DNA of 44,628 nt from a virus. The position numbers and the translations under genes were made by a program. The DNA lies in UHGV virus genome UHGV-0190738, one strand, 5' to 3'. Below the pieces are notes generated by a model. The model saw only the letters and a list, made by a program, of their open reading frames with translations. It was not told the DNA's origin and searched no databases. Positions 1,476 to 28,874 of this stretch are shown here, one piece after another; position 1 is the stretch's first letter, and the number at the start of each line of letters is the position of its first letter.

Positions 1476-2612
1476 ATGTGGATTGAAGAATTACCGAACG
1501 GTAAATACAAATATTCTGAACGATACATTGACCCATACACAGAAAAAAGCAGAAAAGTTTCCATCACACTTAACAGTAAATCTAATCAAGCTAAGAAGCA
1601 AGCAACTGTGGAGCTTCAAGAAAAAATTGATAAGAAGATCGAAGAAAAGAATCAAATCAAGATAACGCTTGGAGAATTATTGAATGTATGGTGGAACCAG
1701 CATAAGGTTTCTATTCGCCAATCATCACAAGTTAATTATGAGAAACTTTTGAAATACATACGAAAGAACATTAACACTGAAGCAGTGGTACGTAATACAG
1801 ATACAAAGTTTTATCAAGATTTCCTAAACGGGTTAACTCAATCTTATGAATACAAAAAAAAGTTTAGAAGTGTGCTAAAAATGGCGCTTGATTATGCAGT
1901 CGATATGGAAATGATCAAAATTAATCCTATTAGTAGGACGAAAGTTCCAAAGCCAGCTTTAACAAAAGAGACTTATGAAAAAGTCGAGGATAAATATTTA
2001 GAAGAAGAAGAAATCAACAAGCTATTGAACGTCTATTACAGCACGTTTCAGAGCGTCCATCACGGAAGGTTAGCTGAGTTCATGTATTTAACTGGACTGC
2101 GTGCAGGCGAAGCTATAAGCCTCACAATCGATGATTACGATCCGAATAGCAAAACTATAAAAGTGATTGGTACTCTAGATTATTCGGACGGCTACAAGAA
2201 TGCAAAAAAAGAGATGCCAAAGACATTAGCATCATATCGTGAAATTGATTTATCGAATCGAGCGATAGAAATAATTGACGAATTGATTTTAGAGAATAAG
2301 TTAAAATTTAAAGGAAAGACTTCTTATCTCTTTGTTGGCAAGACTGGCAAACCAATTCAAATCAATGCGTTCAACAATTCGCTAAAAGCTATGAATGACA
2401 AACTTGGTAAAGATGCTATCAAAAAGAAAATGTCTAGTCATATTTTTAGACACTCTCACATCTCCCTACTTGCTGAATTAAACATACCAGTAAAAGCAAT
2501 CATGGAACGCGTAGGTCATGCAGACATGGAGACAACAATGAAAATCTACACTCATGTAACCAAGAAAACAAAAGCTAGTATTGTTGAAAAGCTTAATGCT
2601 AAAGGCAAATGA
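1476..2612 (+). CDS. int: Tyrosine site-specific integrase (phage integrase family).
   Basis: N-terminus MWIEELPNGKYKY..ERYIDPYTEK is typical of Lactobacillales phage integrases. C-terminal catalytic region has HIFRHSHISLL...RVGHADMETTMKIYTHV (R..H..R..Y). RBS AGGAG lies 8 nt upstream. Confidence 0.9.
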   Translation: MWIEELPNGKYKYSERYIDPYTEKSRKVSITLNSKSNQAKKQATVELQEKIDKKIEEKNQIKITLGELLNVWWNQHKVSIRQSSQVNYEKLLKYIRKNINTEAVVRNTDTKFYQDFLNGLTQSYEYKKKFRSVLKMALDYAVDMEMIKINPISRTKVPKPALTKETYEKVEDKYLEEEEINKLLNVYYSTFQSVHHGRLAEFMYLTGLRAGEAISLTIDDYDPNSKTIKVIGTLDYSDGYKNAKKEMPKTLASYREIDLSNRAIEIIDELILENKLKFKGKTSYLFVGKTGKPIQINAFNNSLKAMNDKLGKDAIKKKMSSHIFRHSHISLLAELNIPVKAIMERVGHADMETTMKIYTHVTKKTKASIVEKLNAKGK

Positions 2613-2615
2613 GTT

Positions 2616-2637
2616 TTGCCCCTTTTCTGCCCCTTTT
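2616..2637 (+). repeat. Tandem direct repeat, 2 x TGCCCCTTTT(C) (left arm-type site candidate).
   Basis: Seen directly: ttttgccccttttctgccccttttgg. Confidence 0.5.
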
Positions 2638-2644
2638 GGTTTTT

Positions 2645-2675
2645 GACAAATAAAAAAGCAAGCTCTCAGGCTTGC
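2645..2675 (-). terminator. Intrinsic terminator for leftward (minus-strand) transcription, protecting int from antisense read-through.
   Basis: On minus, the stem GCAAGC-CTGAGA-GCTTGC is followed immediately by TTTTTTATTTG. Confidence 0.5.
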
Positions 2676-2820
2676 TGTTACGCGGTTTATAAAAGACACA
2701 TGCCGGATCCTACTTAGTTGGATTATCGCTAAACAAATATTGCTAATTGTTGTCATATCAATGTTTTTTCGACCTTCCCCACACTCTTTCTTACTGATTA
2801 TTTGACAACATTGGCAAATA

Positions 2821-2844
2821 TTTGCCCCTTTTTTGCCCCTTTTT
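2821..2844 (+). repeat. Tandem direct repeat, 2 x TTTGCCCCTTTT (right arm-type site candidate).
   Basis: Seen directly: tttgccccttttttgcccctttttttcag. Same 10-mer core as the repeats at 2616-2637. Confidence 0.5.
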
Positions 2845-2867
2845 TTCAGATTTAAGAAACTGTTCGC

Positions 2868-2897
2868 TTTACAAACCAGAACAAACGTTCGTATAAT
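2868..2897 (+). promoter_or_regulatory. Sigma-A-type promoter for the plus-strand moron operon: -35 TTTACA (2868-2873), 17-nt spacer, -10 TATAAT (2892-2897).
   Basis: Near-consensus hexamers with 17-nt spacing, followed by RBS GGTGAGGTGAAGG and ATG at 2916. Confidence 0.6.
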
Positions 2898-2906
2898 ATC
2901 GGTGAG

Positions 2907-3314
2907 GTGAAGGTTATGATTTATGATGATGAGTCAGCAGAAAAGCTTTTTTTAGAGGCCAAAAGCGTTTATGAGGATAGGGGCATGTTGAAATGGTTGA
3001 CAGGATTCTTTTTATCCGATCACACTGCAGCAATGCAAAAAGATGTTGCTGAACGATCACGAGTCAATGAACAAAAGCCACAGATGTACTCTCACGAAAT
3101 ACAACACGTTCTAGAGCATGCTCGCTTAAAAAGACGCCCTGTCGCAATTCAGCTAGAACAGCTAGATATGGAAGGTAAATATTTAGATGATGTGGTAGGT
3201 ATGATAAAAGGCTATGATGAATTAGGAATCTACATTGGTGATCAAAAAGTAGATTACGATGAAATACGACATGTAGAGTTGTACGACTGGCACAAATGGA
3301 GTGAGCTGAAATGA
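2907..3314 (+). CDS. YolD-like protein (PF08863-like). The likely true start is the ATG at 2916, since 2907 is a GTG.
   Basis: Hallmark RGMLKW..F.L..H motif, and a C-terminal pattern (RRPVAIQL...GKYLDDVVGMIKGYDELGIYIGDQ...I..I..VEL) matching the YolD family. No UmuC-like Y-family polymerase gene is adjacent. Confidence 0.55.
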   Translation: MKVMIYDDESAEKLFLEAKSVYEDRGMLKWLTGFFLSDHTAAMQKDVAERSRVNEQKPQMYSHEIQHVLEHARLKRRPVAIQLEQLDMEGKYLDDVVGMIKGYDELGIYIGDQKVDYDEIRHVELYDWHKWSELK

Positions 3315-3523
3315 ACCCTATTTTGCTCTACGAACAAGGCTATATACCTTTTTCTACATTACAAGACTTATTGTGGGATTTTGGACCAAATAGTATTTTT
3401 GAAGTCGGAGAAAAATGTTTTGAGTTTTACTGTAAGAAAGCTAACAAATTTCATGATTTTGATTATTACATATTACATTACGGGAGTGGTTTAAATGATG
3501 AGCGTGAGTGGTATTGTGAGTAG
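3311..3523 (+). CDS. Hypothetical small protein (70 aa), translationally coupled to the YolD-like gene by an ATGA overlap.
   Basis: ORF with an ATGA stop/start overlap. No recognisable motif. Confidence 0.4.
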   Translation: MNPILLYEQGYIPFSTLQDLLWDFGPNSIFEVGEKCFEFYCKKANKFHDFDYYILHYGSGLNDEREWYCE

Positions 3524-3824: not shown

Positions 3825-4061
3825 TTACTCTACAATAAATTCTCGCTTTATATTTTTAAACTCATCATCAGAAAGCAACTTAGCTATCACTTTTTTAGTA
3901 AGGTCAATATCTGGATAATATACCCCATAGCCTTCATTCAATGAGAACAAAATAATTTTTTTCAACTCTCTTAACTCAGAATTATTGAGGAGTATCCTTT
4001 CATTAGTTTTATCCATGAAAACTACCTCCATTCGTGGTATAATATTATAAAGGCAATTCAT
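3825..4061 (-). CDS. Hypothetical small protein downstream of the endolysin. The probable start is at 4016 (MDKTNE...), with RBS GGAGG.
   Basis: ORF with a good SD 8 nt before the internal ATG. No recognisable motif. Confidence 0.4.
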   Translation of the reverse strand: MNCLYNIIPRMEVVFMDKTNERILLNNSELRELKKIILFSLNEGYGVYYPDIDLTKKVIAKLLSDDEFKNIKREFIVE

Positions 4062-10332: not shown

Positions 10333-11154
10333 CTACTTATACAGATAACGGAAATCCCATGAAGATTTCACGTTTGCAACATTTTGTATTTCTATCTCAT
10401 TAATGCCTGGAACTAATGTAATCAAACTTAAATTTGTATCGATTCCACAATTTACACCGCTCAATTTCGGATAAACACGGTCTAGCGTGATTGTTTGCCC
10501 AAGATTTGTAGAAAACGGTGGATAATAAATAAACCGCTCGCCAGTCGTTCGATTGAATATTGTCGCATTGTCTAGCGATTCACCTTTTAACGTGATTTTC
10601 AAGTCATGCTCACGTGGATCAATCGTGAAATCTCCTGCATTGAACACTTGAAAACGACTTGCATCAAACTCATACTGATAATCTTCTGCTTCAATATTTT
10701 GAGAAAACTGCCACTCATCGTCCAACGAAAATTCAGAGAGTGTGGTTGAAAGTGATTCTGAACAGCCAGAAGGGACATCGAATGTAACTTCGATAGTTGA
10801 ATAATCATTTTCTTCTTCCGTTAGTTCGAAATTTGACGGATTTACCTTAAACCGTTTTCCCGGACTTAATTCATGCGTTATATAAAATTGAAAACCAGGA
10901 AAAACAATTTGATGTAATTCTGTGATGATTAATTCTTTATCGTATTCATTTTTATAAAAAATATCGAATGTAAGAACCAATTCAAAAGGACGAAAAGAAG
11001 CATTGACTTCTCTACTTCCGTTCGTCCCCTCGAAATCTTCATATTTCACTTCGTAGATAGGCGCTTGTCTTTTTATTTCTTTGCAGATTATCTTTCCATT
11101 TTCTTGCGGATCAAACAATCTACCATTTTGGTTAAAAAGCAATTTGTAAAACAA
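10333..11154 (-). CDS. Distal tail protein (Dit).
   Basis: A roughly 270-aa ORF immediately downstream of the tape measure gene. This is the canonical position. Confidence 0.55.
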   Translation of the reverse strand: MFYKLLFNQNGRLFDPQENGKIICKEIKRQAPIYEVKYEDFEGTNGSREVNASFRPFELVLTFDIFYKNEYDKELIITELHQIVFPGFQFYITHELSPGKRFKVNPSNFELTEEENDYSTIEVTFDVPSGCSESLSTTLSEFSLDDEWQFSQNIEAEDYQYEFDASRFQVFNAGDFTIDPREHDLKITLKGESLDNATIFNRTTGERFIYYPPFSTNLGQTITLDRVYPKLSGVNCGIDTNLSLITLVPGINEIEIQNVANVKSSWDFRYLYK

Positions 11155-27125: not shown

Positions 27126-27335
27126 CTAAACTAAGCCTTCATTCTTTAACTGCTCATATAACTTTGTTGCTCTGTTGATTCCAATTCGCATTCTGTGTTG
27201 TAAATGAACTGGCTTTAATTTTTGTTCAACCCCGTTAAAGTCAATTGCTATCTTTCTAGCTTCACTAATTAATTCATCGTCCATAATTATTTTTCCTCCA
27301 ATAATCGGCCATCGAAAATGTAGGTTTTCGGCCAA
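27126..27335 (-). CDS. Small protein with an FtsK-gamma-like winged-helix domain.
   Basis: QHRMRIGINRATKLYEQLKNEGLV closely resembles the FtsK gamma motif (QRRLRIGYNRAARLIEQMEEEGIV). Confidence 0.5.
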   Translation of the reverse strand: MAENLHFRWPIIGGKIIMDDELISEARKIAIDFNGVEQKLKPVHLQHRMRIGINRATKLYEQLKNEGLV

Positions 27336-27363
27336 AATAAAAAGACCGCCTAAGTGATCTCGA

Positions 27364-27525
27364 TTATGTATATTTCTTTAATTGTTCTTCTACATTTTTT
27401 CTGAAATTTTCATTCTTAGTTTTGAACTCTTTGTTTTTCTTTTCGAATTCAATTCTCTTTTCTAAGTTGTTTTTCCCAAAAGTTCTGTAGTCATTTCTTA
27501 ATTCATTCCATTGTTTTAACATCAT
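27364..27525 (-). CDS. Hypothetical basic small protein (53 aa, below the track threshold).
   Basis: RBS GAGG 8 nt before the ATGATG. AT-rich and Lys-rich. Confidence 0.25.
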   Translation of the reverse strand: MMLKQWNELRNDYRTFGKNNLEKRIEFEKKNKEFKTKNENFRKNVEEQLKKYT

Positions 27526-27539
27526 ATCCAAAACCTCTT

Positions 27540-28460
27540 TCAAGTAATTTTGATTATGTACTTTAGATAGACAGGGTTACCGATTCTATCCAAGCCATCG
27601 TGGAATTAGTTTAATTACTAACTCCGACCATCTAACCAAATATGTATTAAGCAACCTACTCCATTATGGAACCCACTGTTTATCCATGCCTGGCAGATAG
27701 GAATGCTCGGTTGCTTCGTTAGGACTATGACAAGATAGCCAATGTTGAACACTGGATCAGAATACCGCCCCTGACCTTGGCAAACTCATTTAACTATGAT
27801 TGCATCGATGTATCTGCTCATAGACCGCTACAAAGCCTGCGTAAGGCAACTTACCGTGTTCCTAGCAAGTCCAACTTAATGTTACTCCCCTAACCTACAA
27901 CTGAGAGCGTCTCACGTCTGAGATAGTATTCTATGCCTTTTAACTGATTCCCAGCACGCTGGTTAATTCAGCCAATCAACCGGCATCCGATAAGATTGAT
28001 TGTTTCCGTAGGTTCTCTAAGTCACTGGAGTGGCACTGCCCCACTCACGAAACTGTCTTTGCTTTTGGTAAAAAGGATTCGTAGACGACCACCGACTACT
28101 TCAATTACCCTTTGCGTCTTCTACTTCCGCCACAGTGACATAATATAAAGACGGCACGTGAACTTTAAAGAAAACGAAGTCTTTCAACTCCATTCTTATT
28201 TATTTTGTGCCGCCAGTGAGCTTCTAACTGCACCTAAAAGCTCGTTATATACATTGTGCAGATGTTGCCTTCTCTGTTTCCGCAGAGTGGCAGTGTAGTC
28301 AAAAAGCGAATAACCCACCAAGCTAGACGTTTATATGTTAAGAGGTATAAGGAGAAACTTCATGCCAATAAAGTTAGGTTGAGTCGTCTGCTTGGTGAAT
28401 TATCTACTCTATCATTTTAACCCCTATTGACATGAGACAACTACACGCTTTTGTCTCAAA
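27540..28460 (-). ncRNA. Candidate large structured non-coding RNA (a roughly 0.9-kb ORF-free, GC-enriched region just downstream of arpU). The strand is assumed from the operon context.
   Basis: No ORF of 60 aa or more in any frame. Local GC is clearly above the phage average. There are many short GC stems and GNRA-like loops (GCGGAAACAG, TACGGAAACA, GAGTGG-N7-CCACTC). Confidence 0.3.
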
Positions 28461-28874
28461 CTAATTTATTTCACCTATTTTTCTAGCAAAAGCAAATAAT
28501 ACCTTTTGTCTAATGCGATATATTGTTGGCTTACTATACCCATGTTTTTTACCAAACGAAGCCCAATCCATCCAACTATCCGCACCCCAATACTTCAATT
28601 CCATAAGCTTGCGGATATCACAGTCCTGTTCTTCTAACGTTTCCTTGATGCACTTCTTCCACAGTTGACGATTAATGATGTAAGGATCAGATAATTCTTT
28701 GATGACTTGTGATTCAACAGGATTACTTCTGATGTTACCTTTGCCGCCGCCGATGTTTTCATCAGCTTCTTTCATCTTGAGTTCTTCCTTACGGATAGCA
28801 ATTTCCTTGTTGTAATTCGGATAATTTGCAAACTTTCTGTCTAGTTCATTGATTAGATAATCGTTTCTACTCAA
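28461..28874 (-). CDS. ArpU-family late transcription activator.
   Basis: Size, position before the packaging genes, and the C-terminal HTH-like KPTIYRIRQKVLFAFARKIG are typical of ArpU/RinA-type regulators. Confidence 0.7.
   Translation of the reverse strand: MSRNDYLINELDRKFANYPNYNKEIAIRKEELKMKEADENIGGGKGNIRSNPVESQVIKELSDPYIINRQLWKKCIKETLEEQDCDIRKLMELKYWGADSWMDWASFGKKHGYSKPTIYRIRQKVLFAFARKIGEIN

Follow-up and report, generated by a model that had tools for sequence, protein, structure and literature searches.

We analysed positions 27540-28460 of the virus genome UHGV-0190738 (44,628 nucleotides (nt), in the following called the window), a stretch without long open reading frames (ORFs) that follows an ArpU-type activator gene and had been proposed to encode one large free-standing phage RNA. 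Comparison with homologous loci shows the region to be composed of modules that are conserved and structured as RNA on the minus strand and that are shuffled independently between phages. The reading we favour, albeit with some reservation, is that of an array of small structured RNAs, of the type found in phage tRNA islands, that is punctuated by tRNA-like elements. A single large RNA is very unlikely. Among the modules is a 119-nt element derived from tRNA-Leu (in the following T-like), in which the anticodon arm is missing.

Modular organisation of the region

With 1125 nt, positions 27336-28460 form the window's longest span without an ORF of at least 60 amino acids (aa) in any of the six frames (332 nt for the runner-up), as the original prediction had claimed. 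Within 27540-28460, the biggest ORF has 54 aa, none of the five ORFs compared has a PHROG match, and gene callers place nothing in the 100% identical copies of the region held by six other assemblies, which confirms its presumed non-coding character. Identical copies are found in, e.g., GCA_046982165.1, GCA_008916925.1 and GCA_046980745.1. The GC content had been described as visibly higher than that of the surroundings. This enrichment is real (0.419 vs. 0.382 for the window) yet modest, since the value marks the 95th percentile among 921-nt windows, and it is shared with other windows, which reach up to 0.456. The structured appearance of the region holds for the minus strand, which folds better than shuffled sequences (minimum free energy (MFE) z-score of -3.3, compared to -1.7 for the plus strand).

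In the following, q denotes 28461 minus the window coordinate, i.e., a position counted along the minus strand. The 15-nt signature GTCACTGTGGCGGAA (q322-336) recovers no fewer than 120 viral contigs and lies within an ORF-free gap in about 95 of these. Compared via blastn with relative loci, the region falls into separate blocks, namely q41-196 (module A), 246-347 (B), 320-445 (T-like), 433-632 (D), 577-714 (E) and 746-921 (F and G), which are present in varying combinations. That is, the modules A, B, T-like, D, E, F and G recombine independently, and they do so across more than 200 phage loci. For instance, locus L046 has A and B (98%) as well as F and G (94%) in common with the window, carries another T-like insert and lacks D and E. 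L031 shares A and the part from D to G, and Schiekvirus phages hold only a T-like, D and a variant of F. Many relatives encode real tRNA genes between the same modules (Lys-ttt, Ser-cga, suppressor-type tta and tca, Ile), and in many of them a clear intrinsic terminator closes the array after E or F; no terminator follows F in the window.

A tie to the neighbourhood of ROOL RNAs and tRNA genes is found in relatives. In phage phiSHEF16 (Schiekvirus, locus L001), ROOL ends at locus position 2904, and the homologue of q320-584 starts about 10 nt further on, at position 2916, within a tRNA cluster. For module F, an 81% match is found in Aerococcus phage AVP, where the homologue of q754-820 sits between tRNA-Tyr and ROOL.

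The search for homologues and compensatory base changes, which had been named as a check of the original prediction, was positive: the modules are conserved in related and unrelated phages, and their base changes are compensatory. Every helix supported by covariation is local to one module, and the G-U pairs in the alignments of A, D, E, F and the T-like scaffold are valid on the minus strand only. Module D (27892-28014, minus strand, ~123 nt) is closed by the stem AACCUACG/UGUAGGUU around at least three internal hairpins, with a possible pseudoknot between the loop GGAUGCC and GGCAU. In its alignment of 21 sequences, 525/525 cells are paired, five pairs are altered on both sides and the covariation score is reached by 0/500 shuffles; the inner helix P3 is left out of this count, since two sequence classes fail column-by-column alignment there. 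Module D is 89.7% identical to its counterpart in Schiekvirus phages. Module E (27738-27881, minus strand, ~144 nt) is conserved at its ends, with a hairpin pair on the 5' side and one hairpin on the 3' side, and variable in between; six pairs are altered on both sides among eight aligned sequences. In module F (27651-27714, minus strand, 64 nt), the scaffold GCAACCGAG ... GUAGGUUGC surrounds a class-specific interior. Here, five pairs are altered on both sides within the window's class (10 sequences), and in total 62 distinct F elements share the same ends around at least 10 interior classes of 48-82 nt.

The whole window has no Rfam 15 match at gathering score, in line with the possibility, raised earlier, that the region might belong to no known class. 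Membership in the GOLLD or ROOL class, which had been suggested, is not borne out: a cmscan-type Rfam search of 27300-28700 on both strands returns neither GOLLD, ROOL and HEARO nor group I/II introns, self-cleaving ribozymes or tRNA at E<=10, and what it does return are two meaningless matches, RT-4 (16 bits) and HOTAIRM1_3. We consider this negative result informative because the same search detects ROOL in two phages that share pieces of the region (259.3 bits in L001 and 254.7 bits in L003, with cut-offs of 99.1 bits for the ROOL model RF03087 and 29 bits for the tRNA model). GOLLD (RF01998) is also without a match in the 19 + 11 related loci. Instead of the single multi-pseudoknot architecture of ~580 nt that characterises ROOL, we find a mosaic of separable modules. 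ARAGORN at default settings reports neither a tRNA nor a transfer-messenger RNA (tmRNA) in the window, and tRNA-like ends around a tag frame, as expected of a tmRNA, are found neither by ARAGORN nor by Rfam. We also considered module D as a self-cleaving ribozyme, which is unsupported given the absent Rfam ribozyme match and an outer stem that closes the fold. Within an incomplete coverage of the literature, we found no description of T-like, D, E or F in full texts, including the ROOL and GOLLD papers. In the deposited phage records examined, the elements are unannotated or a hypothetical protein is called over them. The T-like class and the motifs D, E and F thus appear to be new.

A tRNA-Leu-derived scaffold with variable inserts

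The T-like element of the window (28021-28139, minus strand) is identified by fold, homology and covariation. Its 5' part comprises the acceptor strand GUCACUG, U8, G9 and the D-arm GCGG-AAGUAGAAGA-CGC. A 66-nt insert then replaces the anticodon and variable arms, and the 3' part is formed by a 6-base-pair (bp) stem GAGUGG/CCACUC with the 7-nt loop GGCAGUG, followed by the acceptor strand CAGUGAC. The discriminator is a U at 28020, and CCA is unencoded. When folded, the window's element as well as two homologues whose middle parts are unrelated show the 7-bp acceptor stacked on the 6-bp hairpin. The hairpin GAGTGG-GGCAGTG-CCACTC, listed in the original prediction among short stems, is real and is the T-arm-like hairpin of this element, and the statement that no tRNA feature is visible does not stand.

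The relation to tRNA-Leu follows from L088, which encodes an ARAGORN-confirmed tRNA-Leu(taa) with encoded ACCA: the acceptor stem GUCACUG/CAGUGAC, U8, G9 and the 5' segment of the D-arm, GGCGGAA (GUGGCGGAA), are identical, while the D-loop variants differ. Furthermore, a 108-nt class of T-likes retains CUUAAAA, i.e., the anticodon loop of tRNA-Leu(UAA). In contrast to the tRNA of L088, T-likes have no anticodon stem-loop, a T-stem of 6 instead of 5 bp, no encoded CCA and mostly U instead of A as discriminator.

The T-like does not work as a tRNA. The window's element has the 7-bp acceptor, U8 and the D-arm of a canonical tRNA and lacks the anticodon stem with its 7-nt loop. Where a 5-bp T-stem, a UUCRANY loop and a 12-bp helix are expected, it shows a 6-bp stem and, together with the acceptor, a helix of 7+6 = 13 bp; the extra G-C pair of the T-stem is invariant in 67/67 scaffolds. 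Among 146 distinct T-likes, CCA is encoded in two and the discriminator, mostly U, is followed by U in 135; members outside the Enterococcus group have A as discriminator. Canonical-tRNA detection (Rfam model, ARAGORN default) fails for the window's T-like, for related T-likes and for acceptor variants. At a threshold of 90% or when introns are allowed, ARAGORN calls several T-likes with exactly the boundaries given above. The inserts were also considered as introns of a working tRNA-Leu. We rejected this since ARAGORN, with introns allowed, calls only L044 at its normal threshold, the 88-nt class is too short for an anticodon arm, long inserts are stem-closed and the group I models are silent.

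We define the T-like class by a covarying 7-bp acceptor, UG, a D-arm GCGG-loop-CGC, a variable insert, and a 6-bp stem with 7-nt loop that abuts the 3' strand of the acceptor, without CCA. The window's element belongs to this class, for which our census lists 282 instances, spread over 246 loci and representing 146 different sequences with lengths of 59-248 nt. The inserts of the distinct members (23-172 nt) form 54 clusters. Three scaffold types are found, in each of which D-loop and T-arm are perfectly linked and combined with many inserts: type I with D-loop AGGGUAGA and T-loop UUCGAUU, a second one with D-loop UAGGUAGA and T-loop UGCAAAU, and type III, to which the window's element belongs, with D-loop GUAGAAGA and GGCAGUG-like loops. 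T-likes outside Enterococcus are also located in tRNA clusters.

Covariation was assessed on 67 distinct scaffolds with the inserts cut out. Here, 98.1% of the cells are paired (a value inflated by the choice of members, see below), both sides are changed in 11/16 pairs (7/7 of the acceptor, 4/6 of the T-stem), and this is matched by 0/500 shuffles. Sliding the pairing partners lowers the paired fraction to 30-46%. In addition, we scanned for T-likes with other acceptor stems based on the D-arm only, i.e., with the acceptor left free. The scans yielded wholly different acceptors with perfectly complementary 3' strands, for example UCCUGGA/UCCAGGA, UGAUGUG/CACAUCA, GGCAAGG/CCUUGCC, CCUGCGG/CCGCAGG and AUUGCGG/CCGCAAU.

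Two further observations concern the arrangement of T-likes. In seven loci, two of them stand in tandem, 197-217 nt apart, with type I preceding type III. In L037 (~2330-2970, minus strand) and in L083, an ORF of ~190 aa that resembles HNH-type homing endonucleases, with a terminator of its own, lies inside a T-like right past GGCGGAA; the T-like gene may be a homing target.

Predicted processing of the array and competing explanations

According to the array reading, the whole region would be transcribed as one precursor, in which the hairpin modules A and B would be followed by the T-like and then by the stem-closed RNAs D, E and F. RNase P is predicted to cut at the 5' end of the T-like and RNase Z past its discriminator. 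The T-like would thereby act as punctuation: it would free a stable RNA of tRNA shape bearing a variable domain, and its cleavage would set the 5' end of the next module (D, E or F).

The pattern of conservation makes it probable that RNase P and RNase Z process the array. The acceptor stem, D-arm and T-arm of a tRNA are the parts that are recognised by RNase P, RNase Z and the CCA-adding enzyme. In the T-likes, exactly acceptor, D-arm and T-arm are kept, with covarying acceptor and T stems, and the anticodon and variable arms are free to vary. Cleavage by RNase Z is suggested by the unencoded CCA and the U after the discriminator, since CCA-less precursors with such a U are said to be the class that this enzyme cuts in Bacillus. 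The real tRNAs examined in the arrays lack an encoded CCA, too.

The spacing of the modules fits a precursor of several RNAs. Module D starts 6 nt past the acceptor stem of the T-like in the window, and the same distance to a tRNA or T-like is observed in 24/24 distinct copies. F elements are most often found 3-4 nt past the 3' end of a tRNA or T-like, and E likewise starts a few nt past such an end in most copies, though not in all: in relatives, it follows a tRNA, a T-like, D, F or another stem-closed module via the linker U(U/A)AACA, and an intrinsic terminator often comes next. From the combination of CCA-less tRNAs and T-likes, the U after the discriminator and a next module only 4-6 nt further on, we infer the multi-RNA precursor. 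What the released RNAs would do is speculation; a role in the take-over of translation or in defence against host attack on tRNAs is suggested by their company, i.e., tRNA-Lys(UUU), tRNA-Leu(UAA), suppressor tRNAs, ROOL and (in L329) skipping-rope RNA.

Several points weigh against the array reading. Cleavage by RNase P and RNase Z is a prediction from sequence features, and the window's T-like is of the least tRNA-like type, with the T-loop GGCAGUG instead of UUCGAUU, a D-loop without GG, U as discriminator and no score from the Rfam tRNA model. Its helix of 13 rather than 12 bp could shift or weaken recognition by both enzymes. Punctuation gives no origin for the 3' ends of D, E and F. No terminator follows F in this phage, and the array might be no more than a section of a long mRNA leader. 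The members of the T-like class were chosen by a 3' strand pairing beside a hairpin, which inflates the percentage of paired cells; the hairpins recovered this way are conserved T-arm sequences and not arbitrary ones. Finally, sequence conservation is partly shallow because 13/15 genome matches come from one genus, Enterococcus.

The alternative that survives best, though we hold it to be unlikely, takes the T-like itself as the effector, i.e., as a tRNA mimic that titrates a factor reading acceptor arm and elbow but not the anticodon. Candidate targets would be a host tRNA-directed defence enzyme, leucyl-tRNA synthetase (LeuRS) or the CCA-adding enzyme; the insert would serve as specificity or display domain, and D, E and F would be separate effectors. 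Such a role fits the intact scaffold next to hypervariable inserts (54 clusters among 146 distinct members), the persistent linkage of D-loop and T-arm types, the discriminator A outside the Enterococcus group, and the presence of tRNA-Lys(UUU) and tRNA-Leu(UAA) in the arrays. It also fits the stand-alone T-like of L313, which occurs without D, E and F and is itself without a blastn match among phage records. The tRNA-Lys(UUU) is a classic target of anticodon nucleases, and A73 together with the elbow reportedly forms the identity set of LeuRS, for which anticodon and variable arms are dispensable. With A73 as the main identity element, charging is conceivable for members with A73 and less so for the window's U73 member. 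On the other hand, a decoy for anticodon nucleases would require an anticodon loop, and U73 and a non-canonical T-loop are found in the element of the window. Moreover, an effector role is compatible with punctuation and is an extension of it more than an alternative.

We regard it as quite improbable that the region is a cis-acting leader or a DNA site of the late or packaging operon (promoter, terminator, antitermination, cos/pac, recombination) with a decaying pseudogene as its tRNA-like part. It is true that the region lies between a late activator gene and the HNH/terminase genes, that there is no terminator between F and the next ORF, and that the conserved module ends could act as recombination linkers, to which the cassette-like insertion in phiSHEF16 would correspond. 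However, the same modules occur in the tRNA island of virulent Schiekvirus phages, away from the terminase/packaging locus, and many relatives terminate the array before the next gene. Base changes that are compensatory and include G-U pairs point to selection acting on helices in the RNA of a single strand, and 146 distinct copies with a covarying 7-bp acceptor and T-stem are not what a decaying pseudogene would leave.

Still less credible is the view that the region is a single large structured RNA that founds a new class similar in kind to GOLLD or ROOL. In its favour, the full 921 nt fold better than shuffles, as given above, and neither an internal terminator nor a strong promoter is predicted in the window (the terminator-like hairpin at 27739-27755, at the end of module E, is weak). 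For GOLLD itself, the 5' half has been reported as variable and the linker as holding tRNAs (PMC12286853). Yet there is no Rfam match, all covarying helices are confined to single modules, and the parts recur elsewhere in other combinations, orders and numbers, with genuine tRNA genes between them and often with a terminator of the array's own. The earlier view of a free-standing large RNA is therefore not upheld. A frameshifted or degraded protein-coding gene, for which length alone would speak, can be dismissed for all practical purposes, given ORFs of at most 54 aa without PHROG matches, the silent gene callers in six assemblies and substitutions that keep helices, not codons.

Further modules, neighbourhood and relation to known RNAs

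The modules upstream of the T-like, all on the minus strand, begin with the hairpin h0 (UGAGACAA-N10-UUGUCUCA, 28433-28458) directly past the stop codon of the arpU-like gene. It is supported by sequence and MFE fold, is conserved at 89% in L070 and is not a canonical terminator because the U-tract is missing. Module A (28312-28401) is a 17-bp stem AAUUCACCAAGCAGACG / CGUCUAGCUUGGUGGGUU around ~55 nt that contain GUUUCUCCUU. Among its 16 homologues, three pairs are altered on both sides, along with many A-U to G-U shifts that are valid on the minus strand only. Just upstream of it, we read by eye, i.e., without a tool, a putative extended -10-like element TGNTA(T/G)AGT. The optional hairpin A2 (28266-28292, UGCC-ACUCUG-CGGAAA-CAGAG-AAGGCA) is present in 11/16 relatives of module A and missing in five, where A abuts B. 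Module B (28149-28264) comprises two hairpins according to its MFE fold, the second of which (GGCGGCAC...GUGCCGUC) stops 10 nt before the T-like. It is matched at 73-81% in four loci, and a long hairpin in its position ahead of a T-like is also found in EG-TP1 and three numbered loci. Downstream of F, segment G (27540-27650, minus strand) is the least supported part. In this linker, two hairpins are predicted, and it extends into the ribosome-binding site of the next gene. It is 94-96% identical in L046 and L052 only, and no terminator-like site is predicted in it.

Not all short stems and GNRA-type loops that had been quoted for the region exist in this form. Some are true hairpins, e.g., TGAGACAA..TTGTCTCA immediately past the arpU stop codon. 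In contrast, GCGGAAACAG is a hairpin with a loop of 6 nt and no GNRA tetraloop, and TACGGAAACAA is no loop at all: it covers the junction and one side of the stem that closes module D.

The loop of module A shows a feature on either strand (28335-28375). On the minus strand, GUUUCUCCUU is anti-Shine-Dalgarno-like. On the plus strand, AAGGAGAAAC, a spacer and ATG precede a mini-ORF of 5-6 codons (MPIKLG, or MSVKG in relatives), of which the Shine-Dalgarno sequence, ATG and TGA are conserved and the peptide is not.

The surrounding genes are all on the minus strand, and the reported position between ArpU and the packaging genes is correct. Upstream lies the ArpU/DUF722-type activator (137 aa, 28461-28874, minus strand; phrog_36 at 4.7e-13, PF05263 in public gene calls). 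Downstream, a 59-aa ORF (27364-27543, minus strand) is the first gene, whose ribosome-binding site is reached by segment G, followed by an FtsK-gamma-like ORF, HNH, TerS, TerL and portal. Relatives with recognisable flanking proteins show the same setting, in which the array is preceded by an ArpU-like gene and followed by HNH/TerS genes, all in one orientation. In L261-L266, an identical arpU with RNA region is fused to differing packaging modules (Terminase_4/TerL with HNH, or Terminase_3), so the RNA region travels with arpU and not with the terminase. The window very probably stems from an Enterococcus prophage since, in a search of one genome per species, the 13/15 matches mentioned above are Enterococcus species.

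The arrays of related phages hold further elements. The commonest real tRNA in Enterococcus prophage arrays is tRNA-Lys(UUU). Suppressor-type tRNAs of the ochre kind (anticodon tta) are found in six such loci (in L086 at a relaxed ARAGORN threshold only), opal-type ones with tca in two, and an unusual tRNA-Ile(AAU) with anticodon aat in five. In six numbered loci and ~15 other arrays, real tRNAs are preceded by a hairpin with loop GGUAGCUCC and then GGUU, a motif that ROOL also shows in a hairpin close to its 3' end (L001 ~2806-2830; L003 ~3862-3886). In phiSHEF16, ~45 nt of the ROOL 3' end are duplicated (2865-2910 and 3378-3420) and flank T-like, D and F together with a terminator, so these look like a cassette inserted between ROOL and tRNA-Met. 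In L329, a T-like with acceptor UGAUGUG/CACAUCA is followed after ~145 nt by a skipping-rope RNA (RF02924, 58 bits, at 1016-1100). Locus L018 shows three TTTGTAGGG repeats after the upstream gene and, just past the terminator of the array (10643-10957), matches to rli28 (143 bits) and, on the other strand, to RatA (55 bits), accompanied by a small hydrophobic ORF. We ruled out rli28 as a member of the array since its position past the terminator, a promoter-like sequence of its own and the hydrophobic ORF mark a separate locus like type I toxin-antitoxin systems. Array sequence of the Enterococcus-phage type is also found in assemblies of unrelated bacteria, namely a 518-bp contig of Vibrio olivae (L132) and a contig of Streptomyces sp. 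P17 (L136), and is probably assembly contamination there.

With ROOL, the array has in common its occurrence in Lactobacillales phages beside tRNA genes, the cassette close behind ROOL in Schiekvirus, and the recurring GGUAGCUCC-loop hairpin with GGUU. It differs in that ROOL is a single cage-forming RNA of ~580 nt (PMC12286853), whereas here several units of 60-145 nt are shuffled and no covariance model matches. GOLLD likewise resides in tRNA neighbourhoods of Lactobacillales phages and combines variable with conserved parts. In contrast, the arrays have neither a model match nor a 3' domain conserved in all of them, and their modules are separable.

RNase P and RNase Z make cuts at the t-elements of plant mitochondria, and further precedents are the TMERs of murine gammaherpesvirus 68 (MHV68), the stable RNAs of phage T4 (co-encoded with phage tRNAs) and the leuZ 3' trailer sponge. 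The t-elements have been described as tRNA-like structures that contribute to 5' and 3' mRNA ends (PMC1920247). Like t-elements, TMERs and T4 stable RNAs, T-likes are non-decoding tRNA-shaped elements in a longer transcript whose cutting would define the ends of their neighbours, with the cutting in the array being a prediction. They are unrelated to these in sequence, and the large structured inserts of T-likes, with their discrete variation from phage to phage, have no counterpart in those systems. The tmRNA, YrlA (PMC4201824) and mascRNA also mimic the acceptor and T-arm of a tRNA, with the anticodon arm swapped for another domain. T-likes have no tag ORF, Ro-binding stem or Rfam match, and are derived from tRNA-Leu and borne by phages.

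Tentatively, and with more doubt than confidence, we suggest that T-likes are widespread tRNA-Leu-derived scaffold RNAs. Their tRNA body with its acceptor, D-arm, T-arm and 13-bp helix might serve as a handle for host maturation enzymes (for A73 members possibly LeuRS), and the swapped structured domains might counter tRNA-directed immunity of the host as decoys or effectors. In this view, D, E and F are new classes of RNA whose 5' ends come from cleavage of tRNA 3' trailers, and together with ROOL and GOLLD they might constitute a phage RNA toolkit around tRNA islands.

For ROOL and GOLLD, which are abundant phage RNAs with solved cage structures, tRNA adjacency is, to our knowledge, the only consistent clue to a function. 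Their neighbourhood holds further conserved structured RNAs, i.e., an anticodon-less mimic of tRNA-Leu and no fewer than three stem-closed motifs that are physically linked to the 3' ends of tRNAs. All of these fall into a blind spot of annotation, as the deposited phage records examined do not annotate them as RNA genes. The T-likes are a natural case of the 'tRNA scaffold' principle known from RNA engineering, and small modular RNAs in inducible Enterococcus prophages offer a tractable genetic handle on roles of tRNA islands beyond codon supply.

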